Positions 1 to 60,752 are shown, numbered from the stretch's first letter. The stretch is DNA of 64,000 nt from Geosiphon pyriformis uo1 (GCA_016748015.1 JAAOMT010000420.1:62001-126000); one strand, 5' to 3'. The notes: a model not told the origin generated them from the letters alone. Made by a program: numbers and translations.

Positions 1-1626
1 AAAGCCCATAAACACTTCAAAATCCCCATCCACAACCCAACAGAAGATGTCATTGAAATCCCCAAAGGGACTCTCGTTAGTTTCATATCCGCAGATAGTC
101 AGAATCCTGAAAAACTCCAGTCTATTCCAGATTTCGCACAATTATTCTTATTCTGTAACATTACCTCACAAGTATGGAATTTGCCAAAAAAAAGTTACTT
201 GTTTACATCAGAAGAGATCAATAAATTGAATTTAGGAAATTTAAGTACCCTGTAACAAATGCAACTCAAAGTTCTTCTGAATCAGTATGCTAATGTCTTT
301 GCCAGCAAAAATGAGTTCAGATGTACCAACATTGTGAAGCATCAGATTGATACAGGAGATGCTCGACCAATTAAGCAACGAGCTTACTGCGTACTCCCAT
401 CTGGCGATAACCTAATTAAGCAAGAAATGCAATGGATGCTTGATAACGGCCTAATCAAAGAATCGTTAAGCCCTTGGTCCTCGCCAGTAGTCTTGGTCAC
501 CAAGAAAAATGGAAAAATGCAATTCTGCGTAGATTATCGAAAACTAAATAGCATCATGTGAGGAGATAGTTATCCCACTCTCCTCATTCAGAAAATTCTG
601 GACAATCTAGGGAAAAAGAAATGGTTCTCGTCATTAGATTTAGCAAGTGGTTACTGGCAAGTTGAAATGGCCCCCAAAGACAAAAGAAAAACAGCATTTA
701 CCACTCGAGACGGAAACTTCGAGTTTAACATAATGCCTTTTGGACTTTGTAATGCTCCTGCCATGTTTCAACGTCTGATGGATGTAGTATACAAAAGAAT
801 TCTTTGGAAATCAGTAGTAGTCTACCTAGACGACACAAACGTGTTCTCCGAAACATTCGAAGACCATTTGCTCCATCTGCAACAAGTCTTCGAACACCTT
901 CATAGTGCCAGATTGAAACTCAATCTCGAGAAGTGCTTCTTTGGAAAAACCGAGTTAAAATTCCTAGGACATGTAATCAGCAAGGACGGAGTTAAACCTG
1001 ATTCAGATAAAGTACAAAAAGTTAAGGATTTTCCAGCCCCAATTAACCTCAGAGAATTACGAGAATTTCTAGGATTAGCAGGATATTATTGTCGATTTGT
1101 CAAAGATTTCTCAAACATTGCAAAACCACTCCATCAATTGTTGTCTAAATACGTACCGTACTTGTGGAAGGAAGATTAACAGAAAGTATTCGACTATCTC
1201 AAGCAGCGATTGATTATATTCCCAATCCTGATTTACCCAGATTTCACTAAATAGTTCATTGTCACTACAGACACCTCGAAAAATGCTTTAGAAGCAGTCT
1301 TATTACAGATAGGACTGGACAATAAAGAACACCCAGTTGCCTATGCTAGTCGCAGCACTAGTCCAGCAGAAAAGAATTACAGCACAACAGATCTGGAATG
1401 TTTTGCCATTTATTGGGCTATACAGACTTGGAAACATTACTTCAGTCAACTATTTGATCTATATACTGACCACAAAGGACTTATTTGGTTACTCAACAAT
1501 CCACAACTAGAAGAAAAATATGCGAGATGGAGTACTTATCTGCAAAAATTCCCACTCAAAGTCTATTACAAGGAAGAATCCAAGAATACCAATGCTGACA
1601 GTTTGTCGAAGATGCCACAAATCTAA
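1..1626 (+). pseudogene. Element A pol (pre-RT spacer, RT, RNase H), one frame with premature stops, terminal TAA at 1624-1626
   Basis: ORFs 259-561 and 667-1179 and the RNase H end NADSLSKMPQI* share one frame. Confidence 0.9.
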
Positions 1627-1636
1627 TCCCAGACTC

Positions 1637-3004
1637 ATGGATACACTCACTTATCAACAACTACATCAGTACCTATCGACACTATGTTTCAAGGAGATAT
1701 TATCTCAACAGGAACAGAGTACCATACAAAAACAAGCCCGAAATTATTTTATTCAAGACAACCAACTATATCAATGAGAACACCAAAACCACCCCAACCC
1801 ACAACGACTAATTACGAACAGTGAAAAAGAAACTATACTATATAGCGTGCACTCAGATCTGACTGCAGGACACTTTAACAAAGACACTATCCTTGAAAGA
1901 ACACTAAACTTATACTATTGGCCAATGATGCACAAAGACATTTTCGAATATATGCTCAATTGTGACACATGCCAGCAAAGAGGAGGAGCAAGATTAACAG
2001 AACCACTTCGACCCATTCCAGTTGGAAATCCATTTGATAGAATTGGAATTGATTTGGTTGGACCTCTTTCAATTACATCCCAAGGAAATCACTATATCGT
2101 TGTAGCCATAGACTATCTTATAAAATGGCCAGAAGCCAGAGCAATCCAAGTGGCCAATGCCAAAACAGTCACCGAATTTGTGCATTAAGACCTAATTTGC
2201 TGACATGAATGTCCGAAAGAATTATTATCTAATCAGGAAACACACTTTGTTAATAATATGCTGACTGAACTAAGCCAATGGTTTGGAATAAAGAGACCCT
2301 TATTGTCACCATACCACCCACAAACAAACGGACTGGTAGAACAGTTTAACAGAACACTGTGCAAAGCACTAGCAAAAATAAGTCATGAAAACAGACAAGA
2401 ATGGGACTTATTCATATCTTTTGTATTCTTTGCATACTGAACATTGAAACAAAATACGACTCAGTTTACACCGTTTGAACTAGTCTATAGAAGAAAAGCT
2501 ACGTTACTGATTGAACGAGTGATACCGTCATACTCAACAGAAACAATCAATGAAGAGAATTTTGAGGCTACCTTACACCAAGGAATGTACCAGCTAATGG
2601 AAACATTGGAAAACAATCAAAGAACAGCAGCTGACAATATTAGTTATGCTCAAGAACAACAAAAAGAAAGACATGATAAACACCTGCCAGAACAACCAAT
2701 AGAATTCAAGATTGAAGACCAAGTACTGTTACATTGTACAAAAGCTGAGAAACAGTGGAGTGGAAAGTTCAACCCAAAGTGGGACGGTCCATTCCACATA
2801 CATAAAGCATTAGGAAATGGAGCTTACAAATTACGATTAGAAGACAGGATTTTAAAGAAAGTAGTGCATAGAAATCAGTTAAAAATTTATCATGTAAAAC
2901 AGAAATTATTGTCATTAGTACCTCAACTAGGAACACAAATTTCATTAATCAGACCAGAAGATATACCACAAGATCTAGAACCAATCATCGTCATCGAAAT
3001 GTAG
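1637..3004 (+). pseudogene. Element A integrase as a separate ORF (MDTLTYQQL...DLEPIIVIEM*)
   Basis: ATG 1637 is in frame with ORFs 1847, 2258 and 2444; HHCC, DDE core and GPF motifs; +1 frame relative to RT-RH. Confidence 0.9.
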
Positions 3005-3084: not shown

Positions 3085-3819
3085 ATGGACCTTTTAGATC
3101 AAATTTTAAAATTATCTAAACAATTATTTGAAACAATTCAAAAATCAACATCTTAAATAGAAATAACAATTGATAAAAAAGAGATATGGTACAAAGATAA
3201 GAGCAGGAGAGGGAAAAATGAGAGTTCAATTAGAACTAAACGTTTTCTTTTCTACCCACCACCCGAAAGGCAATGTGGGAGGAAAAATTGCCTTTGGACA
3301 GGGGATGGAAAAAAAGGAGGCAAAAAACAAGAAAAAGGTTACAAAAGAAGATACTTGGTCCCTGAGCTCAAAGAAATAAAACAAGCTTTAGCTTATAGGA
3401 CCAAACTTTCTGAAACAGAGGAGTGGACACCTGACAATGCCCAGGAATAGAAAGAAAGACTTTCTCCAGCTTATTGGTTCTACAAAATTGGAGAACAGCT
3501 TGACTTGAAAACACCATATGAAGATCTCAGCCAGAAAACATTCAACAAAAAAACAATACAACAAGTAGAAAAATTTGTAGAGAAAAACAACCTGACCTTA
3601 CATTACAAAGCAGCATACCGACTATACGCCACCTTCCAACATTGTCCAAATGTACTACTAAACGAATCTATAAAAACCATAATAGTTAACAGCATAAGAT
3701 GAATAACCAATCAACAGTTTGAAGACCTACAAAAGGCAATACTCGAGGCAACAATCAAACATTACATGAACGAAGCCACGATAACAGATACATATGGTTT
3801 CGCAGGAGCTCAATTTTAA
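3085..3819 (+). pseudogene. Element A ORF3, 244 codons, unknown basic/helical protein with three internal stops
   Basis: Single frame from ATG 3085 to TAA 3817-3819, abutting the PPT; homologous to element B 50142-50840. Confidence 0.8.
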
Positions 3820-3833
3820 AAAGAGGGGGATAA

Positions 3834-4943
3834 TGTTACCCAAGTAGAAAAACCGATCCAAAGTTATGAAGAAACATGACCAAAACGTGACATAACACAG
3901 AATAACGCACAATAACGTTGGATAATGTGTTATAATATTGGATAATGTGTTATAATGCAGGATAACACAGAATAATGTGCAATAATGTAGGATAACGTGT
4001 TATAATGCAGGATAACACAGAATAACACAGAATAACATGTAATAACATCAGATAATGTGTTATAACATAGGATAACTAGCAATAATGTAGAAAAACGAAG
4101 CAATAACAAAAACAACAAAGCAATAGCTAGCAATAGTGAGACAATTGAAAGCAATCCTGTAAAACCAAAAGAATGTATAAAAGCAAGTAGTTGTAGAAGT
4201 GAGAAAAGGCAGAGAAAAAAAAATTAGATAGGAACTTCTAGACCAGAAATTAAAATATCTATACCTCTTTATCCTTTATTATCTTCCCTATTTCATCTCC
4301 TGAAATAAACCAATTATTAAAAGAAATCAGAATCACGAATTTATGTTCTTAAACTTCATGGAATTTATGTGAATTAACCCTTGTCTCGTACCTCCATTCT
4401 AGAACAGATGCTCTTAGCATAACCGCCTTGAACCTATTAACAATTTGGACCAATTGCTTTTGATCACAGTGATTGACGATACTAATTTATCTTTTCTCTC
4501 TTTTTTTTTCTTTTTTTTTCTTTTTCTTTTTTTTTCTTTTTCTATCTTATTTTTTTTGTGAAGCGACAACATAGTAAAATCGACTGTTTGGGAATAGACT
4601 TCATGATAGCCTGGTAAAAAAAGAAAGCTTCTCCTAAGTTTTAGATATTAACATTATCTTGTTAGCTTACCAGAAGGGCAAAAAGACAACACCACACCCT
4701 AATGACTGCATTTGTTAACTTGGAGAAAAAAGCTCACATTTACGAAAAATGTTGTAATCGACGAAAGACAAACTCTGTGTCTTATAACCAAAGAACTCAA
4801 CGGGTAAAATTCACATCTAGGAATAGACCTTTAGAGACTAATAATCAAGATTAAGCCAACAGAATTATGCAGAAGACATATCATCAATAATTGAGAGCAC
4901 CAAACATTATTATTTCCCATATCCACCAAGTTTACTCATAACA
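3834..4943 (+). repeat. 3' LTR of element A
   Basis: Starts TGTTACC three nt after PPT AAAAAGAGGGGGA; ends CATAACA; shares colinear blocks with the element B LTR up to its end. Confidence 0.8.
3881..4090 (+). repeat. Tandem 10-bp array (NATAAYRYRN) in the U3 region of LTR A
   Basis: About 20 phased units, e.g. gataacacag, gataatgtgt, aataacgcac, tataatgcag. Confidence 0.9.
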
Positions 4944-7106: not shown

Positions 7107-8858
7107 TTAGAATGTTTTTTTACCATTAACTAATTTTGTTGATAGATCAAGCTTTCTTCGACGTCTATCTATTTTTGTAATTAAGATGGATATTCCAAGA
7201 AAAGTCCACCATATTACCCAAGATAAGAGGACAAGTAGATCCACAACAGCGACAACCCAGGGGATATGACTAATTACAAATGGACACGATGAATAGTGAT
7301 ATTCATAATCTAGAAAACATAAGAATTCTTCAGATATTCGGTTTTGAAAAGATGAATGACTTTTCATTCTTCTTTACCTTTCTCGCTCTTCTGGTCGCCC
7401 TTGCGAATTTCAAACAATCCCGCATTACCTCCATATGCACCCATCATCGATCTTACTGTCACTTCTCGTACCACAAATTCCTGTTCAACTTTCCCTGAAA
7501 AATTTGATTTCTTTCCTAGCTCAAACTCCTCAGTTCGATACGATTCAATTTGGTACTTACCTGTTTCTTCGTTTATAACGCGTACTACATGTGTCACGTC
7601 ACAACCTTCATGATCGTGTCCTGCAAATATAAATCGGGGTCTAAGACGAGTCAAAATGAATTCGCTAGCATTCAGTGATAAATGATTTTGTTCCTCGATA
7701 TAGGATCTTTCAAGGTTAATAAATTTGTCAGTAATTTTAAATAATTTATCAATTTAGGGTTGTGAGTTCTTTGAAATATTGTTATTTGCTTACTGGTTGT
7801 ATATCGTCATTGGTCCGTCAACGCATAGTCCTTCTGGTTTATATATTGGGATATGAGATACGAGTATAAATGGGGAAAGGTAATCTTCTTTACGCTCATC
7901 TGCTATCCAATCAAGAAAATCCCAGGTCTCTGCACGCAAATCCTATTTAGATTCAACAAATTCCTTTAGCAACGAAATTTAGAAGATGGAAAGTTTGAAA
8001 AATATTTTACTACTTCATCCATTGCTGGTCCATCAATATTCTGTGCATTTATGATTACTAATTGATGTCCTCGCTCTTCTTCATGGGTGATATTATCTTC
8101 GGAAAGATGTATATAATCCTGGTCAAGAATCCATTCAACGAAATTCGTGGGACCGAAAACTCGCTGCCAACGATCAACACGATGACGAGTCATATCAAAA
8201 TTATAACCGATATCATGATTACCGGTTATGTTGACTAACTTGTGTGCATATTCCTGATAGGACTCAGGTTGATTAATCGGTGCTATTATATTGTAAAGAA
8301 TGAAATAATTAAACTAGCATATACTCACGCTATTAGGGTCGCCGAAAATCCACTTAAATCTATTCACCCGTTTCTCAAATTCTTGATCAGTTACCAATTG
8401 ACTCGAGAAAAGATCTCCAAGCAGAATTACATGCGTCGGTGAGGGTTTGAAGAAAGAATATCGTGATACAAAAGAGGTATATATATGCCGGAAATAGAGA
8501 TCATTTCCAAAAAGATCAATTTCACCTGGCGCAAAAGAAAAGAGGAATTTAGTTGAAAGTTATGTTTTTGGCATAAAGAACCACGTTGAATATAAGAATT
8601 AACCTCGTATTCCTTGTCTAAATATTTTTGCGTCACCTTCGATTTGTGGGTCTGCCAAAAGAAGTATTCTTGCATCGGAATCTAATGTTTAATAGACGAA
8701 ATTATTCCTTTTAAACGGTAAAAATACTCGCTACCACTGCACACCAGCAATATACCAGGCCATTTCCATTGACAAAATATCGTATAATAGAATAAATAAA
8801 GTGTCGTTCCGAGCGCGGTGAATGTTGAGGATAAAAGTATTTGAAGTATAAGTCGCAT
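7107..8858 (-). CDS. TED1: Ted1/MPPE1-like metallophosphoesterase (GPI remodelling), multi-exon
   Basis: ADPQIEG, LGDLFSSQ, GNHDIG, HIP, AGHDHEGC and EVTVRSMMG motifs; N- and C-terminal hydrophobic segments. Confidence 0.85.
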
Positions 8859-24922: not shown

Positions 24923-25359
24923 ACCATGTAAGGAACACAAAGTACAAGAAAGGTGTTTTGATTTTAAAAGATGCCGAATTATTTGGCTTAAAACTTTATT
25001 GATAAACCATTTTTCTGGTAATTCCTATTTTTTCTTTTTTCAAGTATATTCAAAAATAAATTGAAAAGGATATTTTCAGGTTGGGAGCAATAAAGATTTT
25101 CAAAATATTAGTTTATAAATATAAAAATTTATATTGTTATTGCATAAATATTACTGTAAAAAAAATTATGTTTTTAAATCATATTTTTTCAAATAAAAAT
25201 TCTTATAAAAATAATATTATAATAAAATTTTATTTTACTTTAACAATTGATCGGCTTTTTTAAAGATTATTGTAACGATAATAGAATAAGACTATCTATT
25301 CAACATTTTTCTTTATTCATTTACATTTTAAAACCTTTTAGGACCTTTTCCATTAAACA

Positions 25360-28300
25360 ATGAATCGGACGCAAAATTCATCAGATAGCTGTGGGAGAAA
25401 CTATTACAGGCCTTCATCTTCAAACTCGAGAAGTAACTTTCGCCGGAATAACAAACCAAACTATCATTCTAAACAAAAGTTTCGCTCTCCTCAGAATAAC
25501 AAATCTGTTTACCAAACAGTTAATGGTTTGCTTGCTGGATCTCCACCTGCTGGAATGGCCACAAGTGGATTCTTTATAACTCATACAAGTTATGACGAAT
25601 ATGGCTATCCGGATAGCAACATTTTTGAAGCAGATTTAATCGCAAGGCTTGCCTTGTACCTATCCCATCAAGGCAATTTCGAATGTGAAAACATCACAAT
25701 TCTTACCACCACCCCTGCCCAGAAAGATATGATTTGGGAGAAACTCGATCCGACAATGAAGCATGAATACGTACTTTGGGAAGACAGATGGGGCCCAATT
25801 AAAGTCAAAACTATCATGGAAAATGACGGAGAACGAGCAAAAAATGTTCTCATATCTCTTGTTGCTCCTCCCCCCGAATCTCAAGATCAATGGTTAGAAG
25901 TTGTGGAGCGGGAAAATTTTCTGGATAAAATTTTATCTTTGTCAAAGGGCTCCCTTTATATTGTTGGAAATCGCAATGTTTTACAGGAAAGTATAAGTTG
26001 GAAATCATTTTTGGACTCACTATCTTCTCAAGGTAAAACCTTTAAGATGTAACTTATAATATAGCAATTTACATAAATAAGATTCCGAATATTTTTTCTC
26101 TTGCTTATTTAAGGATATTGTGGTGACAGCATAAAGATTATATGCCAGCGACATCCACAAAATGTTACTGAAATAAAACACCACTATGAATTTGATCAAT
26201 ATTCTCCTGATGGGGGATGTTCCGTGAGTTTAAATTTTTCATTATAAATTTTTGTGCAACTACTTTGAGATTTAGATATCGCCATATACCGTTTCTCCCA
26301 ATGTAAGAAGATTATATCTATCTAATATTTTGAAATTCTTATTTAGTTTCCATGTACTCATCCACTTTCCTGCAACCATTCCTGCCCTCTTAAATGTCAC
26401 CCTATTCCACATTCAGAGGCAGTTAGACAAACATTTGGCAAGTTGAATTGGCACAAATTTTATTGGGCGAATATATGGAAGTCATCGTCGGCTTCGCTTG
26501 CAAGAATTCTCAAATACCTGTAATTCACGAATTATATGGACTCATCGGGGAATTTTTTGATATCCCCAATTCAAACCCCTTAATTTCGTACATATATATT
26601 ATTCCCTGAAATGTGATAGTACGAAGTACTTCATTCATGGGAAAGCGGAAAATTTTAGCTTAATCTAGAAAAGGAATTGTTTCTTGTTGGTGAATTTCAG
26701 CTATCCGAGAATACTTGTAAGAATTCATCCAAGAAACGTTATGAACAGCGTTTCGAGAATGATCATAATGATGGCGCGGTATAAGCTAATCGTTCATCTT
26801 TATTCCAGTCTGCACAAAATCATGTGCTCGCGATCGGCCTGATGGCTGCAACCATACATGTCCGCGGAAATGCTTCGAGTGTACAGAGGCTGGGAGATGT
26901 CCTCCCTGCAAGTTCCCTGTCAATACACCCTTACTATGTGGCCATGAAATAAATTTTCCTTGTTCTGAAATACCGGAGAGTTTGGGAGAAGTTATTTGCA
27001 ACACGCCTGTTTCCTATAAACGAAAATGTGGACACATTACTGAAATTCTTTGCCATGAAAAGGAGCTTACTCGCCTTGAAAAGACGCATCTTCCACCCTG
27101 CTCGGAAGTCACAAATATTGTATTCATTAATTGCCGGCATTTTGCCGAATATACTTGCAATGACAGTCTGGAAGAATACCAGTGTTTGTTCGACTGTGAA
27201 GAACTGTACCCATGCGGGCATCCTTGCAAGAAAACATGTGGGAATAAAAATCATACACACGAGCGAGATGATTGTACCTATAATTGCAGGAAAAAGCTAA
27301 TATGTGGACACTATTGTGCCGAAGGCTGCAAAAATATTAACAATCATACTGCTAAATGCCAATTTGTATGCGAAAAAAAATGTGGGCATGGTTTAAAATG
27401 CCCTGCTTTATGCTATGAACCCTGTGTCGATTGTCCGGAACCATGTCCATGGAGATGTGAACATATTCAATGCCCCTTGCGTTGTGATGATATTTGTCAG
27501 AGAACCCCATGCAATGTTCCATGCTCAAAGTCTCTTAGTTGCGGGTGGGTTTCACCTTTATAATATCAACCCTCGACTGCTCTTAAAATTTTTACTAAGT
27601 CACTTAAAATTACTCTAATCAATAATAGCCACCTTTGCAGTGGACTCTGTGAAGAACAATGTCCGCCTTGCTTGAATTGCAATCCGTATATGAAGTGCCC
27701 AATTACATTACGACATTTTAAAGAGTTTGAGAAAGACGATCGACTTTATCAGCTTCCAGACTGTGGCTGTGGTAAGTGACTATACTAACTAATGTAAGGA
27801 AAGACTTTTTCATTTATTAAAAGACTTCTTTTTGCGTTTTAGTATTCGATGTGCAGGCCCTCGATCAATATTTTAATAATAATGCTAAAAATGGTGAGCG
27901 ACCATCACGCTTCAATTAAATTGGTTAAATATATACGATAAATTGAATCTTGACCCCTTACCACATATCTTTAGATGGTCACATGGCTATCAAACTTTGG
28001 GAATGTCCTCAATGCCAAGAATTTGTTCAAACGGCCCTTCGATATTATCCCATTATTAAGACACAATTATCATTATGGAATAAAGTAAAAGAGAAGACCT
28101 TCAAGAAAGCGCTCACAGAACTGGAATTTCAGCAAATCCGGATGGTAATGCAAGAGGAGACCCGTAGAGAGGGTTTATATAATACAGTTGGAGGACGATG
28201 GTTTATTTGTCCAAATTATCATCCTTATTATATTGGTAAATTCCTTTTTTCAAGACAGGTCATTTTCATCATTTTTCAAAATACTAACCCATTTAAGAAT

Positions 28301-28453
28301 GTAGGTGAATGTGGTGGTGCACAGGAGATTTCACAATGCCCTGAATGCAGAAGCACAATTGGGGGGGATCAGCACCAAATAGTTCCGGATAATCGATTTT
28401 TTGGGGAATTTGATGGAAGCTCTGCACCAGCATGGCCCCAGCGTGAAATATAA
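25360..28453 (+). CDS. ZNFX1-like protein: degenerate RecA2 (AAA_12) only, NF-X1 zinc-finger array, RING-like segment, C-terminal RZ finger
   Basis: CQRHP...PDGGC linker; repeated CGHxC units; QLPDCGCVF...CPQC; WFICPNYHPYYIGECGGA..ISQCPECRSTIGG. Confidence 0.88.
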
Positions 28454-37500: not shown

Positions 37501-40212
37501 AATTAATAATTTTTTATTTATTAACATTTTACGAATAAGATTTAAATATTATTTAGTATAATACATCAAACTAAGTAATTTAAACTAAGTACAAATCATG
37601 TATAAAAAATACATGATTAATTATTCATACCAATTAGAACAACATTATAAATATATTTTAACAGAAACTACACAATCAGTACCAAAAAAAAACTGTAGAG
37701 TTTATAAGAACCAAAACTAATGCCATATGTTTTTGTAATCCTAAACAACCAAATAACATTATCAAAAAGCAAAAACAAAGGACCACAACTTTTAGAAAAC
37801 ACAAAATTATTATGTGTAATTAAATATTTTTTCTTTATAAATGCTCTGTACTTGGCTTTTATTAATTACATATCAATCCAATAAGCTATTTTCAAACTTT
37901 GCACCAACTCAATAACTTTCTTGCTAGCAGTTTTAACACAACCAAAAACAGAAACAGTCTCCAAATACTATTTCCCAAACACAAAGTCTTTATACAATAC
38001 AGTATACATAATATTATTAGAAACATATAAGGAAAGCAATTATAAAATACAAGATAATAACAAGCTTAAATCTAACACAAAATTTTATTAAACTATACAT
38101 AAATTAATAAGTTTTTTGTGAATACCAAAGTTTATTATGTATATAAAAAAATGATCAGAAAGTTTAATTTTTTCACAATATAGATACAATATACTTGAAT
38201 ATTTTTTATCATATAAGCATTTTCAAACAACAATTGGTAAACACTGATGCAAAGCTTTTATAAAATATGAGTGCAAATTAGCAGTAAATTTACTCACAAA
38301 ACTGAATGTTATATGCAAGTTGGGATACCAAACTAACAAAGTTTAAACCCAATTCACATTCTTAATTATGTTCTAATAAATAACACTAGAATTAAGTTCA
38401 GTTTCTTAATAAGCATAATAAACAATCCTAAACATATTGTAAATAAATAACCAATATTCTCAAATACTGTTATTTTACCAGCTCTGATGTATCTCTCTTT
38501 AATAAAAACAAAAAGCAACAAATTCAAACACAAAGCTAAGTTAACTAATATATTAGTATGCTCATTATCTATAATACTTAAATGGCTTTTAATCTTAAAC
38601 CAGAAAATTAAAAGCTCTTTGTATTTAATAAAGTTTGTAATACTATGTTTCTTAAATTAACAGTAATTATAAAAGTCAAATAAAGCCATATTTAATTTTG
38701 TAATACATACATCCAAAGTGGCTTAATTATCTGAATATACTATAATACTACTAGAAACCAGAACACATTCTAAGACCAAAGCAATTATCTGTAATTCTGT
38801 CATTGTAGAAAATACTAAATTACTAACCTTAATACTAATACCTAAATTCAGGTTGGCAAAAAATACAATCATTACATCTTATCTTATATATATCCAAGTT
38901 CTTTAAAAATCTATCTGTGTAAACATCAATAATATTCAAATTAGCATTAGAAAGACATTGTTTTACTGTGAAAAAATCACTAATATTTAAAATATTTAAA
39001 AGTTGAAAGTTACTACTAAGTAGCCAGACAGCAGAATAAGAAGTAAAATTAACTAAGTAACTATACATCAATTTGAACTAAACAGATATTGGGCCTCTAA
39101 GATTAAGTTTTTTCTAATAATGAAAATTCTTCTAATTAAAAACTAACTTCTTCTTATCATACAATTGTTCAACAAAAAGAATACTAAACCTCTTAAATAA
39201 GCAAGAAACATTATAAAATATTTTATTTTTTAAAACAAAAGACATAAAAGTACCACCAGAAAAATAAAATACAAAAAAAAGATTATTGACAAGAGAAACA
39301 TTATAATCCAAAAAAATTTTTATTACACTAATCAAAAAATTGTTAACTGAACTGATCTTTAACTTCACAAAAATTTGTAAAGAATAAATAGAAAACCAAC
39401 TCAAAATCTGTAAATTTAAAGATCTATGATCAAACAAATGTCTGAAAATTCTACTAGTATTTAAAAAACTTAACACAAAAGCTAATTTACTTTTTGCTTG
39501 TACTTGCTTAAATGATTTTAAGTTATATAAAGATAGATAATAAAAAACTTTATTAAAAAATTTTTTTGGCAAGCCAGCTTTTATTTTTAAACTCTTTTTA
39601 ATCAGCATATTTTATTTGTTATACATACTTTTAAAGACAAAACTAAATTGTGTTTTATAACTAACAATAGATTAAAATATAGCCAAAACTAAATAAAAAA
39701 ACCATTTGTTTAAAATAGTTTTTTATAAGATTATATTGGCAAAAAACCTGATATTTGAATAAGTTTTTCTCAAACTAAGTTTGAATAAACTTTCAAAAGA
39801 TAAAAAAATACCAAAATATTTATAAAATTCTTTATTTTGTGCTATAAATATTAGCAGACCACTTATTAACAACAAGACATTTCTAACTCTTCAATTAATA
39901 AGAATGGCTACTGTTTTTTCATTGTTAATTAAAATATTATTAATATTAAAAAATTCACTTACAATATTCAAAATATATTAAGTAGCAGCTTAACTACTTC
40001 TTACTTAAATTGTATTATTAATAAAAATACTAGCTACCAGATATAAAGTCAATTTATCCAGATTTTCTATTCTGCCAGTTTTGACTACAAACTTAGTGTT
40101 AATATGATAATTATACAAGCTTTTATGTTTTTTGACTTTACATAAAAGAGGATTATAGAAAATTTTTCAAAGCAGAGAGAAGAAAACTTTATTCTAATTC
40201 AGACTATTATGT

Positions 40213-41169
40213 TGTTATCAGAAGTTTTTGGTCTCTTTTCTTAAATGTTGCTAATGGCTGTTTGTTGTGAATTTACGTTTTCTAGAAGTAGTTGAACCTC
40301 CAATAACTGAATTTATTTTCAAATTATTTCCTATAATTTGAACTACTGGGCTTATAAGTGAAATAGCCAATTCCATGCCAGTTACTTTTATGTAGTTATG
40401 TTGTAGTAAATGTCAACTCTTTCCCAGGAATTGCTCATCTGGAAGCTCACTAAAAATGTGTAGTTGCTTTGCTATAAAAGTCAACTCTTCTACAAGAATC
40501 TTGTTTGTAGGCTACCTTAATAATTATAATAAGAAAAAAAAATAAAAATAAAAGAATTGTAAAAAAAATAGAATTCTACTAAGGGAAACGTTTTTTATTC
40601 AGACCTGGAGTTACTAACAGATTACTGAAATTGGTAGCTAATCAATTTCAAAATATTAGTTGTGTTGAGGGAATTTCAAGTGTAATAATTAAAAGATTTG
40701 TTTTTCGAATATTTAATTTTTATTTGAGATATGTAAAAAATAATTTGTTTTAATTAAGATATCTAAAGTAAGCTACTATGATAAGATACATTTTCTTGAA
40801 AAGAGAAGCTTTTCTTTTATACAACTTGTTGAGTACTAGTTTTTGAACTTGCACTTTTCTCTTTTCTACAATTTTAGCAAACTAAAGATATATTTTAGCA
40901 AATTACAAGTTATTTTTATAAACTATTGATTATTTCGGCCAATTTTTGCTAATTTCGGCGAATTTTTGAATATTAAATGGTTCAGAGTATTGTGTGATTT
41001 AATCATCTTAATTTTTATAGTACAATCGAATTATTAATTAAATGATAATAATTGATAATTTGATTAAATAATAAGTGATAATTGAAATAATAATAATATA
41101 TACTAATTAATAATAGGAATTATAAGAGTAATTTTATGCTAATTAATAGCTAAAATTCTGCTGGTAATA
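40213..41169 (-). repeat. Solo LTR, family S, copy 1; no matching TSD
   Basis: Reverse-complement homolog of 48202-49192; flanks ATGT and CCAG. Confidence 0.85.
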
Positions 41170-50141: not shown

Positions 50142-50840
50142 TTAATATTGAGCTCCATCAAAATCTAACTTTGTTAATTCTCCTTCTTGAAGTATTTTTT
50201 GAATTTCATTTTCGAGAGTTACTTGTGTTATTTGAATCTGTAATTCTTCAAATTGAGCATTGGTAATCTTTCCTAATTAATTACTGGTAACCATATCCAT
50301 TGCTTTGTTGAGTAGGATTTCTGGTTGATCCTGAAATGCTGTGTGTATTCAGTATATGGCTTGGGCCTGTGTGGATAAGTTGTTCTTTCCCACAAAATGT
50401 TTTAATTGTTGTAGTATTTTTGTGTCAAATAATCACTTTGTTTTATCTGTATATAGATTCTGGATATTCATGTGTTGTCCCAAGTAAAAATAACAATAGT
50501 TTCTTGGAAATTGTTGTATCCACCAATTCCAAGTTTTTTTAGTCAACTCTTAGTATATTGACTCTTTTAATGACTCTTTTATTACTAATTTTACTTTCAC
50601 AATGATTTTGTCAATGATATTTTCTGTTTTTTTCTGTATTCTATGTGGTGATGTCTTTCTAGTGTCTTGATATCAGATGGTTTGTTGATTAATTGTAATT
50701 TCCATCTTTTGGTGTTGAATCAATTGAAAAAGTTGTTGTGCTAGTGAGTGGATGTTGTTTGTAATTTCTATTTTTCTGATATTTTTTGTCATGTCTACTA
50801 TGTCTTTATATATTCTTTTGATGAATTAATTTAACATGTT
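50142..50840 (-). pseudogene. Element B ORF3, homolog of element A ORF3; degenerate, start approximate
   Basis: YFYLGQHMNIQNLY...ILQQLKHFVGKNNLSTQAQAIY*IHTAFQDQPEILLN...ITNAQFEELQ...FDGAQY*. Confidence 0.8.
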
Positions 50841-52208
50841 GTTGTCAATGATGATGATTGGTTCCAGATCTTGTGAAATCTCCTTTGGTTGGACTAGTAT
50901 CTTCTGTACTCCTAATTGTGGAATATTACTGGTAGATAGTAATGTGATATTGTGGTATGGTTTTAGTTGATCTTCATGTGCTGCTTTGGTTAAAATTTTG
51001 TTATCCAGTCTTAATTTGTAAGTTCCATTCCCTAGAATTTCTTCTATGTGAAATGGTTCATCCCATTTGTGGTCAAATTTTCCACTCTATTGTTTTTTTG
51101 CTTTGGTATAATATAAGAGTACTTTGTCTCCAATTTTGAATTCAACTGGTTTGTCTGGTAGTTAATTATCATGTCTTTTTTTCTGTTTCTTTTGTGACTT
51201 TTGTATGTTATCAGCTGCTCTTCTTTGTTTGTTTTTCAATATTTCTATTAAGTCATATGTTTTTCTTAACAATATTTCTTGGAAATTTTCTTCTGTTATT
51301 GGTTCAGTTGGATATGTGTTAACCTCTATCTCAACTGGTAATGTTGCTGTTCTACTGTATATCAATTCAAATGGTGTTGCTTGTGTAGTGTCTTGCTTCA
51401 TTGTCCGATAAGCAAATAATATTAATGGTATAAACAAATTTCATTTGTCCTGGTTTTCTTAGCTGAGTTTCACTATTGCTTCACACAATGTTCTATTAAA
51501 TCTTTCAACTAATCTATTGGTTTGTGAATGGTATAGTTATAATAGTGGTCTCTTAATTCCGAATCTTTGGCTTAGTTCTGCTAATGTTCTATTTACAAAA
51601 TGGGTTCCTTGGTCTGATAATAGTTCTTTTGGACATCCATGTTGACAAATCAGATCTTGATGGATAAATTCGACAATAAATTCTGCATTTGCTCTTTGAA
51701 TTGCTTTGGCTTCTGGTCATTTAGTAAGATAGTCCATGGCTACTGCAATATATCTGTTGTCTCTGCTGGTAATTGTCAATGGTTTAACTAAATTGATTCC
51801 AATATGGTCAAATGATTGTTTCACTTTGATTGGTCTTAATGGTTCACTGGGTCTTGTTCCTCCTTTTCATTGACAAGCATCACAATTTTGCACATATTGG
51901 ATGATATCTGGATACATTAATGGCCAATAGTATCTCTTTCTGGTTTTTTTCATGGTTGTTTCTTTATGGAAATGTCTTGTAATTGGATTTGAGTACATGT
52001 TGAACAGTATTATCTCTTTTTCTGATTCTGTAATTACTCTGGTTGGTTAATCTGAATCTTTTCTATTTTTCTGATAAAGTATATTTTGGTGAGTGATAAA
52101 ATATTTGGATTGTTGTTTGATCTTCTTTTGTTCTGGTTGAGATAATTTTTCCTTGAACTGTTGAGTATCTATATAATGTTGAAGTTGTTAATATTTTTGT
52201 GTGTTCAT
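50840..52208 (-). pseudogene. Element B integrase as a separate ORF
   Basis: ATG 52208 lies 61 nt after the RH stop; CDAC, IGINLVKP, HGCPKELLSDQGTHF, AYRT, DLEPIII. Confidence 0.85.
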
Positions 52209-53397
52209 CTTTTGTTATATTTTTGTGAGTATTGTTTGGGTTTTGTTATATTTTTGGGTTGAAATATTCTTAAATTTGTCTCATTCGTGACAAATTGTCA
52301 GCATTTCCGTTGTCTTTTCCCTTTTTATAATGTATAATATAAATATATAGCACAAGTGCCATTTTCCATCTTGATTGTCTTCTATCTCCAAATTCTTGTT
52401 TTTGAAGTGATGTCAATTCTTTGTGATCTGTGTACACCTCAAACTTTTGGCTCAAGTATTTTTTCCATTTCATAACTGTCCAATAAATTGCTAAATATTC
52501 TAATTCTGGTGTTCTATAGTTCTTTTCGGCTGGTGTTAAATTTTGGCTGGTGTATACAACTAAATGTTCTCTTCCATCTGGTCCTCTCTGAGATAGTACT
52601 GCTCACAATGCTTGACCTGATGCATTGGTGGTAATAATGAATGGTTTACTATAATCTGAATAGATCAATACTAGAGCTTAAATAAGCTTTCTTCTTAAGA
52701 TGTCAAATGCTTTTTGTTGGGTTTCAGTCCATTTATACTTTGCATTTTTGGTTTGAAAATCATTGAGTGGTTGTGCTATCTTTCAGCTTGGTTACGTTGG
52801 TTGGTATTGGAAAGTTCTTTACTATCTCTATTTTCTTCAGATCTGTTTTTATGCCATCTTTGCTAACTATGTGTTCCAAGAATTTTAGTTCTGTTTTGCT
52901 GAAAAAACACTTTGTTGCATTCAATTTTAATTCTGCTTGTTGTAGTCTTTCAAACACTTGTTGGAAATGACATAGATGATTATCGAATGTTTTTGAGAAC
53001 ACATTGGTGTCATCCATGTATACAACTACTGATTTCCACAATAAGCCAGTATACACAATTTCTATTAGCCATTGGAAGGTTGCTGGGGCATTAGTTAAGC
53101 CAAATGACATTACTTCAAATTCAAAATTCCCTTCTTTTATGGTAAATGCTGTTTTTTCTTTGTCGGCTGGATCCATGACTACTTGTCAGTAACCACAATC
53201 CAAGCTTAATGTTAAGAACCATTTGTTTCTACCAAAAGCGTCAAATAATTCTTGTATCTGTGGAGTTGGATAACTGTCTCCACGAGTTACACCATTAAGT
53301 TTTCTGTAATTTACACAAAAGTGGATCTTTCCATTCTTTTTATAGACGAGTACTACTAGTGACAACTATGGGCTCATTGATGGCTAAATTAACCTGT

Positions 53398-54285
53398 TGT
53401 TACAGTTTAAGAATTTAGAAAAAAAGAATTATAAAAATAATACAAACTATTCAATCATAATATAGCACAGTAATAATCTTAGAAAGGTAATGATTAACAT
53501 AGTAGCAAACACCATCTCGCGATAGTGGCAAGCACCAGTTCACAATAGCAGCCAACACCAACTGGTGATANNNNNNNNNNNNNNNNNNNNNNNNNNNNNN
53601 NNNNNNNNNNNNNNNNNNNNNNNNNNNNNNNNNNNNNNNNNNNNNNNNNNNNNNNNNNNNNNNNNNNNNNNNNNNNNNNNNNNNNNNNNNNNNNNNNNNN
53701 NNNNNNNNNNNNNNNNNNNNNNNNNNNNNNNNNNNNNNNNNNNNNNNNNNNNNNNNNNNNNNNNNNNNNNNNNNNNNNNNNNNNNNNNNNNNNNNNNNNN
53801 NNNNNNNNNNNNNNNNNNNNNNNNNNNNNNNNNNNNNNNNNNNNNNNNNNNNNNNNNNNNNNNNNNNNNNNNNNNNNNNNNNNNNNNNNNNNNNNNNNNN
53901 NNNNNNNNNNNNNNNNNNNNTTGATCAAGATTATTCACGTTGTTACTAATTGATAAAAGCTTTATTGTGAGAATTAGAAAAGCGCTAAAGACCATTAACA
54001 TTCTGTGTTTCTAGATTAGAGAAACACATCAGGCAATTGCAAGAATAGCCTCAGAGAAGACTCCAAACAGTGGGTAGATTTCAGTTCAGCCTCTGAAAAG
54101 GAGTACATAAACACACACAACAATCAAGAATTAAAGAATAACTTACATCGCAACAGTAAAAAAGAAAGCCTTCAGTGTAACAGTGACATTATTACACAAA
54201 TAGAATTGAGGAACTCACGAAAGACTGATTGCAATTAAAGTGGGATATCAGCAATTAAATATAACAAAAAAACCATCCCATAACA
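53398..54285 (+). repeat. 5' LTR of element C (contains an N gap)
   Basis: 53921-54285 is nearly identical to about 60829-61193; followed by the PBS. Confidence 0.88.
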
Positions 54286-54287
54286 TT

Positions 54288-54305
54288 TGGTGAACCCTAC
54301 GAGGA
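54288..54305 (+). promoter_or_regulatory. Primer-binding site TGGTGAACCCTACGAGGA
   Basis: TGG two nt after the LTR end; complementary to a tRNA ending GGGUUCACCA. Confidence 0.8.
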
Positions 54306-54749
54306 AAGAAAATCAAAAAGGAAATAATAATTAGCAATAATTCATTGCTAAAAAGGAAAAGACAAAAGTGGAGACAAAAACCCCTAATCTTACTGTTCTT
54401 GNNNNNNNNNNNNNNNNNNNNAAATCATACTTTCAAAATAAATATCCCAAGAAACCTTTAAAATCAAAAAAAAATGAAAAAGAATATTTAAAACTGAACT
54501 ATCACAACCCAAAGTATTAAGAAACTTACTTGTATTATTTATTGAATGAAACTATCATTCATCAACTGAATCCCTTGGAAGAATAATTCTTGATCAAGAT
54601 TATTCACATTGTTATTAATTGATAAAAGCTTTATTGTGAGAATTAGAAAAGCGCTAAAGACCATTAACATTCTGTGTTTCTAGATTAGAGAAACACATCA
54701 GGCAATTGCAAGGATAGCCTCAGAAAAGANNNNNNNNNNNNNNNNNNNN

Positions 54750-57700
54750 CATCATCATCAACATCAACTCCACAAACGCCAAGAACTCCTAGTTATATTG
54801 ATAAAATTAAACAATGTAACTGGGGAGACATACCAATTACAGAAGAATATTCATCACTATTCCAAAACCCTCTTTTTCAGCCAAAATTTAGAACGGGATT
54901 TGAAAACCATGAAGAGGAGTCTGAATCGGAATCCGAAAAAGAGACCAGCGAAAAAACAATCACAAGACCAGTCACTGGAACAAGCAGCCAGTCCAGAAAC
55001 CAAGAAACTCATGATCAAGAGGAAGAACCGGATATAAGGGAAGCCACCTTTAAGAACGCTCAAGGAAATATCATCCCACCTCCTCTTAGACCAATAAACC
55101 CACCAGCAGAAAATGGCAACAAAATGACCACACCATACATTGCAAGACTAACAGATTTCTCAGGAGAGGAAGAAGAAATGGACGTGCACACATGGCTCAG
55201 AGAAGCACAAAAAGCCATCCAGGCAAATAACTGGAACGACCAAAAAGCAATTCAAACATTACCTTTCTTCCTGAAAGGCACAGCCGACTTGTGGTATCAA
55301 AGCCTGGAAACAAAACCCACGAGCTTCGCTGAATTTAAAAATGCACTCCTGGAGTATTTTAGCGACCCAAACGCCGTAATCCAACTACAAAACAAATTCA
55401 ATACTATTAAGCAAAATACTGGTGAAACTGTCACCCAATACCTTGCTCAATTCAATCGAATTCGCCGTCAGATTGAAGTGATTGAACAAGGATACTACAC
55501 TGATCCTCAGGTTTTAAATCAGTTTATTAGAGGATTAAAAAGCAGCATTTTAGGAAGAGTACGCCCTGCCCACCCTAATTCCTTACCAGAAGCCGTTACG
55601 CTTGCCAGAGCTCTTGAATTGGCTGAGAAAGAAGCTAACCATAGTCAAATGGTTAACATAGTAATGGAGGAAAATAAGACAGAAACATTAGAGAAAAGAG
55701 TAATACGATTAGGGGAGGAACTCTCTAAGAAAATAGAAAGTTACCTCATCCCAGATCCAAGAAAAAATACATACCAACCACCCCAAAGACGCAGCCAGGA
55801 AGTCAGCGACAGTCGAAATAATCGCCCGTCGTGCCAGGAATTCAGAACAGAAACACGTGCCTGCCATTTTTGCAAACGCATAAGATATTTGATTAGTCAA
55901 TGTCGAACGCGAATGATGCAGGAAGCATGCGAAAATAATTACTACGCGCCACCCCAAATGCCCAGAAACCAGTACACGCCAATACCATGCCAATATCCCA
56001 CCACGTATCAAAATCAAGGAGCTTACCAGCAACAGCCCATGATAGCCAACCCGAATTGGCGTCCCGAGGCCCGAAATCAGCCCATGTGGAACCAAAACGC
56101 GTTGGTCCAGAGGAATCCAAACCGTGCTGGAACCAATCAGCAAACCAATCCAAACTACCAAAATTATCAACAAACTTACCTTAATATACCGGAAAACCTG
56201 ATCATCGGAAACAATGACGGTAGAAACATAAACAGAACCAAAAATTCCTCCAAATTGAGCCAGACAATACCACCAGCAGTTGCCACTGAAGATAGCAGCC
56301 TCGCAGCTATTTTTTCTTTTGAATTAGAGGAAAACGAGGCTATGTTCAGTGGAGCAGCATTGGACGAAAAACGCCCAATCACTGCTATGTATATGGAAGC
56401 CACTGTAAACAATACCCCAATCAAACTTATCTTAGACAGCTGATCCGCTGGAAGCATTGTAACGCTTCAACTAGTAAACCAACTGGGTTTCAAAGTTGAT
56501 CATGCCGTGATGTCCCAAATTATAACAGCTGATGGAAGTACAAAGCTGCCTTATGGCAAAATCGACTCATTCCCTTTCGAAATTAATGGCATAGTAATAT
56601 CTACAAAAGTATTAGTAATGGATGCTACACAATATCAAGCGTTAGTAGAAAATGACTGGCTAACAAAAGCCAACACCACCCTAAACTGGACCACCCAAGA
56701 GCTTCTGATTAATTATAATGGCCACCAGGCCAAAATTCCAGCCACCTGTGGCCACTTCCAAAAACCCAGTGCCAACCAAAGATCTACCTTCGAATTTGAG
56801 GAAAATCCAGCACTACCAGCCATCGAAACCTATCAGCTCTCTTGGGCTGATGACCAAAGAACAGGACTACCAGCCGTAACAACGTGGACCAGCGAAGAAA
56901 GATCCGAATGGAACCAGGTAAGTTCACGAAGAAACCACCAGCGACGCAGACCAAAGCTAGAATGCTCAATTTGCAAGAAGAAACTCTTGTCTATAACTGT
57001 GTGCAGCGCACCGGACAAAGACCCAAGAAACCCCACCCACTACTATTGTAACCATTGTAACAAAGAAAAATACGGTTACCCAGAAAGACACGGAAAATGG
57101 GACGAGGAACCGTGCCTCGCTTGTGGAGAACTGTTACCAAGAGGGTGCGACTGGAATGACTTACCAGGCAGAGGAGGAACGTGTGACACAACTTGCCAAT
57201 ACACAATCCTCATCTGTGACTGGGTAAGAGGAAGAATGCCGTTCGAAGCAGCATTCAACAGAGCGTTAAAAAGACTACAGCACTACCCACACGATGAGAA
57301 CGAGTTGTACAACACCGCACAAGCCAAAGTAAGAGGAAGAACCGCCGAAGAAATATGACGTTGGAAAGAGTCAGCCGAAGTAGCCGACGAAGTCGCCAGT
57401 TACAACATGTTCGACCCAGTGGACAAATTCCAGGACTACTACCAACAACTATGCCCCACTCGACAAGAGCAAGAACAATACCTCGCCCAAATCAACACTT
57501 ACCTCTGTGAAAACTGTCTCATCCCGTGCCAAAGTCAGTGCTGTGAAGAGTGTCAAGACGAAAGGGACTTAGAAAGAAAAATAGAAATTGAGAATCAGCA
57601 GTCTTAAAATCAATCAATAAATTAACAAGACTCACCTGACGGTCCCGAGTCAGAAAAATTTGTAGCCTATACTGACCTAGAACAGGTGACCGACATCCGA

Positions 57701-59953
57701 TACTTCAACAACGGGCACTTAGGAATAATACCTGAAAGAGCCCATCCAACCGACGCCGGATTCGATCTATGTTATCCGGAAGACCAATCCACAATGTTAC
57801 CACCCAGGAGTATCACCAAAATCGACCTAAAAATAGCGGTTGAAATTCCGCCAGGAATAATGGTTCAAATGGCGTCGTGATCAAGCCTCGCGAAAAAAGG
57901 AATAAGCGTTCAAGAAGGAGTAATTGACTCCGGATACACTGGAAATTTGATGGTTTTGCTACAGAACAATTCAGAAAAGCCTTATACCATTGAATCTAAG
58001 GAAAAGATTGCACAAGCAATTTTCCTACCATTGGTAAAAATTGGGAAATTCGTGTCAGTGGAAAATTGTGAGGAATTGTTACAAACAACGAGAAGAACTT
58101 TTGGTTTCAGATCAACAGGAAAAGGAATTGAAGCGAATTTCACTGAAACAATAGGGGAAAAAGGCGAAGTAATTAAAAATGAGCGGTCCATCACACTCCT
58201 ACCATATGGAAAATCAGAAATAAGAATAAAAAGGACAATTAAAGAAAAAGACCTAATATTTGAGCCCTACCTAGAAACTTGCCAACAGTTTCTCATAGGA
58301 CTTACTAACCTTTTTATTCCAGCTGATAAAGCTCAATGGATAAAAATTTCTATCGCAAACACCACAGAAGAACCTGTCTACATTCTGGAAGATACCATCA
58401 TTGGATACCTCGGAACGGAGCTAGAAAACGCGTTAACACCACAAGAAATTCTAAATTTCCCAGAAATCGCCCTCTACTGTAAACTCACTTCAATAAATTG
58501 GCAACAACCAGTAGAATGCTATCAATTTACGCCAGAAGAATTGGCCAAATTAAACATTGGAACAATGGATCTCGACCAACAGCGACAATTAAAAGCATTA
58601 ATTTTAAAATACTCTGATATATTTTCAAGAAATGGCGAATTTGGAAGAACCAACTTGGTTCAACACCAAATCCCCACTGGAGACGCCAGACCTGAAAAAC
58701 AACGCGCTTACCATGTCCCACCAATGGAGCATAATTTTATCAGAGAAGAAGTCCAAAGCATGTTGGAAAAAGGAATAATACAACCATCAATGAGCCCATG
58801 GTCCTCACCAGTTGTTTTAGTAAGGAAAAAGAACGGAAAAATTAGATTTTGTGTCAACTATCGCAAACTAAACAGCAAAACAACCAAAGACTCATATCCA
58901 ATACCGTTAATTGACGAAATCTTTGACGTTTTTAGAGGAGCAAAATGGTTTTCTACACTGGACTTGACCAGTGGGTACTGGCAAGTGGAAATGGACCCAA
59001 AGGACAGGCATAAAACAGCATTCACAACACAAAATGGCAATTATGAGTTCAATGTAATGCCATTTGGATTAACAAACGCTTCCGCGACATTCCAAAGACT
59101 AATGGATGTAATTTATTCCGGAATCCTGTGGCAATCCGTTGTTGTCTACTTGGATGATACAAATGTTTTCTCGTCAAAATTCACGGATCATCTCCAACAT
59201 TTACAACAAGTTTTTGAGAGATTGAGACACGCTGGACTTAAACTAAATCTAGAAAAATGTTTCTTTGGGAAAAATAAGCTAGCATTTTTAGGACACGTAG
59301 TTGGAAAAGATGGAATAAAACCAGATCCATCAAAAATAGACAAAGTGAAAAATTTTCCAGTACCTCAAAACGTTTCAGAAATTAGAAGCTTTTTAGGACT
59401 TGTATCTTACTACCGCCGCTTTGTAGAAAACTTTTCAAACATCGCCAAACCCCTTAATTACCTACTATCTAAAAATGTGAAGTTTGAATGGACTGAAGCA
59501 CAACAAAAAACTTTTGAGTACCTTAGACAAAAGCTCATTGAATCACCAATAATGATCTATCCAAATTTCAACAAGAAATTCATTTTGGCCACAGATGCCT
59601 CTGGAACTGGACTTGGAGCCATTCTGTCACAAAAAGATGATAATGGAAGAGAACGTGTAATTGCTTATGCCAGCAGAAGTCTCAGTACGGCAGAACAAAA
59701 CTACGCAGCACATGAACTTGAATGCTTAGCAGTAGTCTGGAGTTGTGTTCACTTTGACACATATTTACGGTACCAATCCTTTGAGATTACGACAGATCAT
59801 AGAGGTCTGGTCTGGTTAAATAACAAGAAAGCGCTAAAAGGAAAATACGCCAGATAGTCATAAACGTTAGCACCATACAATTATATTATCAAATACAAAA
59901 AAGGTACCAAAAATGCTAATGTCGACTGTTTGTCAAGAATGAGACACACATAA
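54750..59953 (+). pseudogene. Element C ORF1: Gag(CCHC)-PR-Cys-rich domain-dUTPase-spacer-RT-RNase H in one frame, with nonsense mutations
   Basis: ORFs at 55124, 56507, 57407, 57686 and 57947 are all co-framed; PR LDS*SA (GGA>TGA); dUTPase AGFDL, VIDSGYTG, IAQ; YLDD; TDASG; ends SRMRHT*. Confidence 0.92.
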
Positions 59954-59982
59954 AAATCACCAACCCACCCGCCACAACAACA

Positions 59983-60119: not shown

Positions 60120-60139
60120 NNNNNNNNNNNNNNNNNNNN

Positions 60140-60733: not shown

Positions 60734-60752
60734 AGATGTGTATAAGAGACAG
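60734..60752 (+). other. Nextera/Tn5 mosaic-end adapter contamination
   Basis: Exact AGATGTGTATAAGAGACAG at a chimeric junction. Confidence 0.97.

Follow-up and report, generated by a model that had tools for sequence, protein, structure and literature searches.

A probable stand-alone integrase gene in a Ty3/Gypsy clade with members in Geosiphon pyriformis

Ty3/Gypsy Elements in the Geosiphon Window

The stretch of DNA analyzed here (the window) is 64,000 nucleotides (nt) from Geosiphon pyriformis uo1 (GCA_016748015.1, JAAOMT010000420.1:62001-126000). It contains parts of three Ty3/Gypsy long terminal repeat (LTR) retrotransposons, A, B, and C, in which a stop codon and a new ATG separate the reverse transcriptase (RT) and RNase H (RH) from the integrase (IN) open reading frame (ORF; Table 1). 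The Pfam domains occur in the order PF19259, PF13650, PF00078, PF17917/PF17919, PF17921, and PF00665, i.e., Ty3-type Gag, protease, RT, RNase H, and IN. RT and RNase H precede the break, and H2C2, rve, and SH3 domains follow it. The hallmarks of LTR elements are present as well: C has an LTR pair with a TGG-type site after the 5' LTR, and A and B have a purine tract followed by TG. A dUTPase lies between protease and RT in C (PF00692, E 1e-22) and in a fourth element, D (E 1e-8).

A preliminary description of the window had placed the end of pol at the same homologous position in A, B, and C, with IN starting anew in a shifted frame. Every junction coordinate was reproduced, as were the frames derived from the spacers (+1 in A, +2 in C, +1 in B). 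The N-x-D motif is at an identical codon distance from the stop in all three elements, and the DNA of their RT regions is 66-72% identical where alignable. Other in-frame stops are sparse (4 in 541 codons of A pol, 3 in 775 codons of C pol). Sparse stops elsewhere and one homologous stop codon, each time with a homologous ATG, make chance decay implausible. All three copies are nonetheless decayed (four stops in A IN, nine in B IN) and dead. In C, IN is visible for its first 45 codons, after which come an N gap (60120-60139), a duplicated block, and a library adapter. With only dead copies present and C mis-assembled after 60119, the window by itself is no proof of a functional split. The A family is high-copy. 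In one DNA run, 18139 contigs align to A with no indel listed at 5% or above, which lends weak support to a frame offset that would be family-wide in this genome. The base changes considered for these contigs were 40 of about 1200. A search of sequencing runs listed no RNA run with the element, which has no bearing on its expression.

Table 1. Positions of the parts of elements A, B, and C in the 64,000-nt window.
Feature	Position	Strand	Remarks
A, 3' part of gag-pol (RT, RNase H)	1..1626	+	Truncated by window start; ends NADSLSKMPQI, TAA 1624-1626, directly after the last RNase H motif; 55% identity to C pol (tblastn)
A, spacer	1627..1636	+	10 nt, ATG-free
A, stand-alone IN ORF	1637..3004	+	Begins with Met; has a YPYY-type N-terminal segment, an H2C2 zinc finger, an rve core, and a Tf2-like SH3; 4 decay stops in 455 codons
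A, ORF3, ATG-initiated	3085..3819	+	3 decay stops in 244 codons; separated from IN by 80 nt without ATG
A, polypurine tract	3818..3833	+	
A, 3' LTR start	3834..4200 (mapped part)	+	TG at 3834, 10-nt tandem repeats; 20 contigs with loose ends at 3834
B, RT-RNase H remnant	52270..53392	-	One frame break; ends NADNLSRMRQI, TAA 52272-52270
B, spacer	52209..52269	-	61 nt, ATG-free; one stop in the IN frame
B, stand-alone IN ORF	50826..52208	-	ATG 52208; 56% identity to A IN; 9 decay stops
B, ORF3	50142..50792	-	32% identity to A ORF3; then polypurine tract and 3' LTR from near 50128
C, 3' part of 5' LTR and TGG-type primer-binding site	53921..54305	+	LTR ends CA at 54285
C, Gag (Ty3 capsid), protease, Cys-rich region, dUTPase, RT, RNase H	54752..59953	+	One frame with decay stops; ends NVDCLSRMRHT, TAA 59951-59953
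C, spacer	59954..59982	+	29 nt; no ATG, no AG dinucleotide
C, IN ORF, first 45 codons	59983..60119	+	Interrupted by assembly gap
C, 3' LTR segment	60829..61193	+	97% identity to 53921-54285

Integrase as a Separate Gene in Related Proteins and Loci

With A IN as the query, 699 proteins of 250-797 amino acids (aa) were recovered at E 1e-30 or better, and the best 120 were analyzed. These are 359-453 aa long and consist of IN domains only. Nearly all begin with Met (116/120), most with MD or ME (90/120), and in 97 of them the first zinc-finger His is preceded by 67-73 residues, compared with 71 in A and B. This size range is unable to return fusions; longer proteins (799-2280 aa) were searched with a 47-sequence IN profile. 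Among the best 120 of 767 such matches, three have at least 50% identity and the remainder 40% or less. The three are eukaryotic gene models, two of which fuse RT-RH to IN and one Gag to IN. All of the joins omit the conserved RNase H end and the IN start, and we read them as probable predicted splices across the spacer and not as real fusions. In two IN clusters, the longer members owe their length to a start called farther upstream or to a gene model in which IN runs into the ORF behind it (ORF3, see below). The viral contigs gave just three weak integrase matches (33-36% identity over 60-90 residues).

The RT side was approached with the RT-RH of C, using the best 120 of 7627 proteins of 426-1357 aa. 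We kept the 104 matches with a single RT, a full RH, and at least 50% identity, and left out 16 that were multi-RT, below 50%, or incomplete. The C-terminus lies within 10 residues of the last RNase H motif in 84 of the 104, at 11-50 residues in 13, at 51-150 in two, and later in five. Hence, 97 of these close homologues stop no more than 50 residues past RNase H, although a few of the ends may be contig ends. IN is present in only one (P0490), which falls outside the split clade in the RT tree. Gag-Pol-IN fusions above 1357 aa are covered by the long-protein IN search only. When cluster representatives were searched with an RT profile, multi-RT gene models crowded out other matches, and this search does not enter the counts. 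One split-clade Pol (P0485) carries a dUTPase-like tail past RNase H.

We also collected 80 metagenome loci (numbered with the prefix L), 39 of which contain both an RNase H end and IN. Thirteen are split and have an ATG where IN starts by homology, 20 carry a fusion, and six look like broken, distant elements. The latter (L049, L051, L066, L075, L078, L080) have no Met at the homologous start and were dropped from the trees and the junction statistics. The spacers of the 13 split loci range from -8 to 727 nt and fall in all three frames; together with A, B, and C they make 16 RH-IN junctions, with frames 0, +1, and +2 in two, six, and eight cases. IN is an unbroken ORF of 399-542 codons in 8 of the 13. 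L023 is a complete element with LTRs 96% identical, encoding Gag-protease, one stop, RT-RH with an extension, IN, and ORF3. The gene order of L013, a permuted contig with a single LTR, is the same. The similar LTRs of L023 and the order of L013 place IN inside LTR elements that moved recently. The preliminary description had allowed that the youngest or consensus copies might have a continuous RH-IN frame; the intact relatives, including L023, keep the split.

Thus, a stop and an ATG of its own replace the canonical Ty3-type in-frame IN in the three window elements and 13 loci, and IN is very likely a separate gene in this Ty3/Gypsy clade. On these comparisons the split is a real, conserved, clade-wide trait of the lineage, not decay, and the earlier proposal of a lineage with IN independent of Pol is supported from the IN side, the RT side, the DNA loci, and the RT tree. 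The layout of the clade, as read from these sequences, is LTR, gag-protease-(dUTPase)-RT-RNase H, stop, ATG-initiated IN gene, stop, small third gene, LTR. The named close relatives are all Glomeromycota (Rhizophagus, Cetraspora, Dentiscutata, Entrophospora, and Paraglomus), and most matches and all loci have no host on record. The split-IN elements are likely all from mycorrhizal fungi.

Phylogeny

The RT-RH and IN trees are unrooted and were built without named reference elements. A quick RT-RH tree has a branch of 18 rows, of which 15 are split, two are gene models, and one is a fused row on a long branch. In a more careful tree, with 65 rows, the 35 that are split or end at RH (two gene models are labelled split) form one side of a branch with support of 88/93; P0490 and the long-branched fused row are outside it. 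Splitting requires one change on this tree, and the branch is found in 84% of the bootstrap trees. A single origin of the split is therefore likely from the RT data. Two points weigh against it. The RT branch was not starred and its bootstrap had not fully settled, and in the IN tree, which requires two changes, no branch sets the split INs apart from all other rows. There, the split INs share a branch (99/97) with seven fused rows nested among them, some of which we take to be plant Athila/Tat-like. Ginger1-like proteins fall outside that branch, and the capture of IN from a Ginger1 transposon is unsupported.

Sequence Between pol and Integrase

The IN start codons stand in a strong context. 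A purine is found at -3 in 22 of 25 (background 205/398, 52%) and a G at +4 in 21 of 25 (background 22/91, 24%). The spacers had been described as G-poor and A/C-rich. This is so for A (10% G), B (3%), and C (3%), but it is not universal, as G ranges from 3 to 22% across the junctions and one subclade has a structured element instead. Eight of the 16 RH-IN spacers are ATG-free, one junction is a start-stop overlap (L026), in five a small ORF extends past the IN ATG and stops 5-38 nt beyond it, and two are long and ATG-rich. The IN AUG is the first after the stop in the eight ATG-free cases plus the overlap, and is not in seven. Over the last 70 nt before IN, five ATGs are observed and 14.7 expected (P=0.002).

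Behind pol, L017 (868-1399), L024 (393-548), and L045 (778-933) carry ORFs of 51-85 codons that precede IN and terminate shortly after its ATG; L024 and L045 have a 51-codon ORF in equal position. In L015 (3-2436), a Mrr_cat_2 restriction-endonuclease-like ORF (E 5e-9) precedes a split-type IN via an ATGA overlap and itself overlaps an upstream ORF. There is no RT on this contig.

A 43-nt hairpin lies just ahead of IN in seven loci, its end 3-12 nt from the ATG; an 11-nt bulge in it is conserved. A model built on these seven found an eighth locus not used in the building, L036 (E 7e-10), with a new compensatory pair, and a weak match in L007. Across the eight rows, 96.9% of cells are paired and 6 of the 12 pairs change on both sides. 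The covariation score was reached in 0 of 500 shuffles, a result inflated by the relatedness of the rows. L018 was omitted from alignment A5. Neither the hairpin nor the window has a match in Rfam, and the hairpin pattern was found nowhere in viral or prokaryote contigs. A second short motif is common to the divergent loci L023 (about 7395-7410) and L070 (about 48-62), 15-25 nt before the IN ATG.

A Third ORF

Behind IN, A and B as well as at least 11 loci have a third ATG-initiated ORF (ORF3) of about 145-245 aa. It is confidently predicted to be all-helical (predicted local distance difference test, pLDDT, 91.9). ORF3 has no Pfam family and no viral match below E 0.1, and its best match among solved structures (Z 5.1, root-mean-square deviation 3.2 over 69 residues) is not convincing. 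Leads from an atlas (0.94, closterovirus coat, 150 shared features) were also unconvincing. A profile of seven ORF3 sequences missed the ORF3s of the window, with a weak match only (probability 20%, E 0.001). The homology of the window ORF3s to the family in the loci therefore rests on position and a shared pattern.

Comparison with Known Elements

The split elements resemble Ty3 in their LTRs, primer-binding site, polypurine tract, Ty3-type capsid, protease-RT-RH-IN order, and an IN with H2C2, rve, and SH3 domains. In Ty3, IN is part of Gag-Pol, reaches the particle in this way, and is released there by the protease (PMC4974528, available text). In the split clade, by contrast, IN occupies an ORF of its own, with a third ORF behind it. 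The dUTPase of C, between protease and RT, is placed as described for PosPlaTy3-5 of Postia placenta, which we compare together with Tmt1 of Tuber (PMC2864245). The available text of that survey, which covers 25 genomes and no Glomeromycota, describes most elements as having one or two ORFs and no separate IN. The resemblance to PosPlaTy3-5 is one of domain position, and unlike the dUTPase-bearing fungal Gypsy elements most split-clade matches have no dUTPase.

The IN itself is most readily compared with Ginger1 transposases and the YPYY integrases of Gypsy elements (Athila/Tat, Gypsy-1-I_RO, DGLT-A1), which are ordered YPYY, H2C2, DDE, GPY/F (PMC2836005, in part). As a free-standing, Met-initiated YPYY-H2C2-DDE-GPY/F protein of about 400 residues, the split IN has the form of Ginger1; the YPYY label is that paper's, and the match to it was judged by eye. 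RT-less proteins with OTU/Ulp1/PHD-type tails, taken as Ginger1-like, begin at the matching position. The split IN differs in lying between LTRs behind RT-RH, and in having no protease or PHD tail and no OTU/Ulp1 domain.

We found no description of a separate IN ORF in an LTR retrotransposon in the literature, including the available parts of PMC3248453, 10.1101/2021.03.30.436303, PMC13465315, and PMC13468544; Repbase, GyDB, subscription journals, figures, and supplements could hold one. The split is a new variant of Ty3/Gypsy gene expression, the mechanism of which we infer below. The ORF3 after IN and the covarying hairpin before the IN ATG in one subclade are new parts.

Expression of Integrase and ORF3

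IN and ORF3 may be translated from the full-length RNA by termination followed by restart at the next good AUG, a reading to which we assign a probability of slightly over one half. Ribosomes would terminate after gag-pol, restart at the IN AUG, and then restart serially at the ORF3 AUG. The hairpin ahead of the IN AUG in one subclade could act in cis to promote restart or the loading of IN, and ORF3 could be an accessory factor for one of these steps. The strong start contexts, the mostly ATG-free or stop-coupled spacers, and the ATG-poor last 70 nt are in keeping with restart. So are the nine IN-ORF3 junctions measured; in all nine, ORF3 uses either the first ATG downstream of the IN stop or an ATGA overlap with that stop, and a purine occupies -3. 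Restart of this kind, after a long ORF, would be closer to that of LINE-1 ORF2 than to reinitiation at a termination upstream ribosomal binding site (TURBS). As far as the available text of PMC5972666 goes, LINE-1 has a 63-nt spacer and SART1 an overlapping stop-start, and the downstream ORF is coupled after a long ORF. Both geometries occur in the split clade. LINE-1 and SART1 differ from it in being non-LTR elements with no particle to enter and in having RT, not IN, as the downstream protein; coupling was shown there, and here we infer it. The TURBS of caliciviruses and influenza B also provide restart after a long ORF, but most split-clade spacers are longer than TURBS geometry allows, and a start within 18 nt of the stop is found in only 2 of 16 RH-IN junctions. 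With the motif discussed next absent as well, the junctions are not of the TURBS type by sequence.

A number of observations weigh against termination and restart. TURBS motif 1, UGGGA, is absent from the 120 nt upstream of the pol stop in 16/16 junctions; the fungal 18S helix 26 sequence, which bears on this comparison, may differ. The spacers of L011 (365 nt) and L023 (727 nt) hold 7 and 12 upstream ATGs, their last ORF ends 74-76 nt before IN, and simple scanning does not explain them. The ATG deficit is weak over whole spacers (33 observed, 42.8 expected, P=0.055), and GTA and GAT are equally depleted, so part of it is composition. The window junctions have no conserved fold (z 1.05, 0.38, and -1.97), and a search with the hairpin model found the hairpin neither in A, B, and C nor in most split loci. 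The tally for the IN-ORF3 junctions is partly circular, the first Met having been chosen as the start. Finally, ribosomes lacking a tether or trans-activator restart inefficiently after a long ORF (PMC5972666, available text), and neither was identified here, where the ORF has 1500 codons.

Alternatively, IN and ORF3 could each come from a subgenomic mRNA of their own, either transcribed from an internal promoter or spliced so that the 5' leader joins an acceptor before the IN AUG. We regard this as possible but distinctly less probable. Foamy virus Pol is a precedent (PMC3705302, in part), the strong start contexts and ATG-poor last 70 nt would suit a short 5' leader equally well, and the long ATG-rich spacers of L011 and L023 suit a promoter region better than scanning. 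Each of the two downstream genes would, however, need its own start or acceptor, the spacers of C, L018, and L035 have no AG, and neither the stop/start overlaps (L026, L015, L008, L079) nor the small ORFs ending by the IN ATG are predicted. Two junctions in series, the overlaps, and the coupled small ORFs fit serial termination-reinitiation better than separate mRNAs, though not decisively. Internal ribosome entry on the full-length RNA, with the covarying hairpin as part of the entry element, seems unlikely. It would account for the compensatory changes just before the IN ATG in eight loci and perhaps for the motif common to L023 and L070, but the hairpin is only 43 nt, its predicted energy is weak (-7 to -14 kcal/mol), most split loci and the window elements lack it, and the window spacers are unstructured.

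A continued RT-RH-IN fusion, with the spacer as an intron or a recoding site, is less likely still. Spliced pol junctions are known from plant Ogre elements, and RT-RH runs into IN in two fungal gene models. In A (113 nt) and C (31 nt), as well as in the overlapping L026, the pol stop is spanned by an open IN frame. This frame is closed inside the spacer in the other 13 of the 16 junctions, and A and C would need frameshifts in opposite directions. A splice restoring the fusion had been named as a further possibility; no in-frame GT..AG pair (donor no more than 75 nt from the stop, acceptor before IN codon 6) joins the frames in 10 of the 16 junctions, A, B, and C included, and a near-consensus pair occurs in one of the 16. 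The gene-model joins delete conserved RNase H and IN sequence, and a conserved Met with a start context would be needless in a fusion. Decay or misassembly of dead copies is a very improbable source of the stops and ATGs. Decay stops do occur in all three window copies and C is mis-assembled 140 nt downstream of its junction, but the stop/start position is shared by three elements 66-72% alike, intact IN ORFs and the 96% identical LTRs of L023 are found among the split loci, the contigs aligned to A have no listed indel at 5% or above, and the IN N-termini, split loci, RT-RH ends, and RT tree already contradict it.

The polyprotein is the textbook reason that IN reaches the particle and is activated in it. 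Under termination and restart, a free IN would need a particle-entry route not yet described. Being made from an RNA that is itself packaged, IN may enter by binding that genomic RNA, or the Gag/RT assembling on it, as suggested by analogy with foamy virus Pol. The foamy virus enzyme is made without Gag and packaged via RNA signals, the IN domain, and contacts with Gag; it is the whole protease-RT-IN precursor that is separated, by splicing, and cleaved IN alone is not packaged (PMC3705302, available text). The split clade differs in that its break is between RNase H and IN. It is also possible that IN meets the cDNA late, outside the particle. A diverse, recently mobile clade without polyprotein IN implies that another route exists, and its members are natural substrates with which to find it.

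The split bears on two scenarios that both appear in the available text of PMC2836005, the acquisition of IN by LTR elements from a DNA transposase and the origin of Ginger1-type transposons from LTR elements. On a speculative reading, which we hold to be rather doubtful, this LTR lineage of mycorrhizal fungi would run as a tricistronic RNA (gag-pol, IN, ORF3) with serial stop-and-restart. ORF3 would serve the element itself in restart or packaging, and free IN would be loaded on the genome by a small RNA element; the lineage may preserve, or have returned to, a long-postulated stage with the recruited transposase as a separate gene. There is also a practical side for Glomeromycota, in whose annotations these INs are listed as free transposase genes or spliced into false fusions. 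LTR elements make up as much as 41% of some Glomeromycota genomes (PMC11952901, in part).

Other Features of the Loci and the Window

In one subclade Pol extends 300-580 residues beyond RNase H as an acidic, Cys/His-containing tail (L013 3503-4441, L023 4951-6705, L009 2-544, L014 1-348, L034 189-467). The two tails scanned have no Pfam match, and several of the hairpin-bearing loci are within this subclade. Gag has a long N-terminal extension with a CxxC motif and no Pfam match in L023 (460-3360), L013 (6801-7436), and L005 (3157-3781). A single in-frame stop or frame change within gag-pol before RT, possibly a readthrough or frameshift site, occurs in L011 (873), L016 (2898-2919), L023 (3361), and L026 (484 and 1588).

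Element D is more decayed than the others and occupies 61190-64000 on the minus strand, tail to tail with the C 3' LTR. It comprises protease, a Cys-rich region, dUTPase, and the start of RT, with no RH-IN junction within the window. In both C and D, protease and dUTPase are separated by a Cys/His-rich region of about 200 residues (56950-57600, plus strand, in C) that has no Pfam match. The assembly is flawed at C, with N gaps at 54402-54421, 54730-54749, and 60120-60139. Past the IN start (60140-60753) the dUTPase-to-RT block 58290-58589 is duplicated as 60140-60439 (98%), and the sequence at 60734 is presumably a transposase library adapter. An AT-rich repeat of about 1 kb is present in three copies (one inverted, 82-91% alike) at 40200-49200. 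Pieces of host genes are found at 6429-32271, namely an L-PSP family gene (6429), a leucine-rich repeat (14346), ribosomal L19 (24365), AAA_12 with an RZ zinc finger (25357-28450), and PDCD7 (31807).

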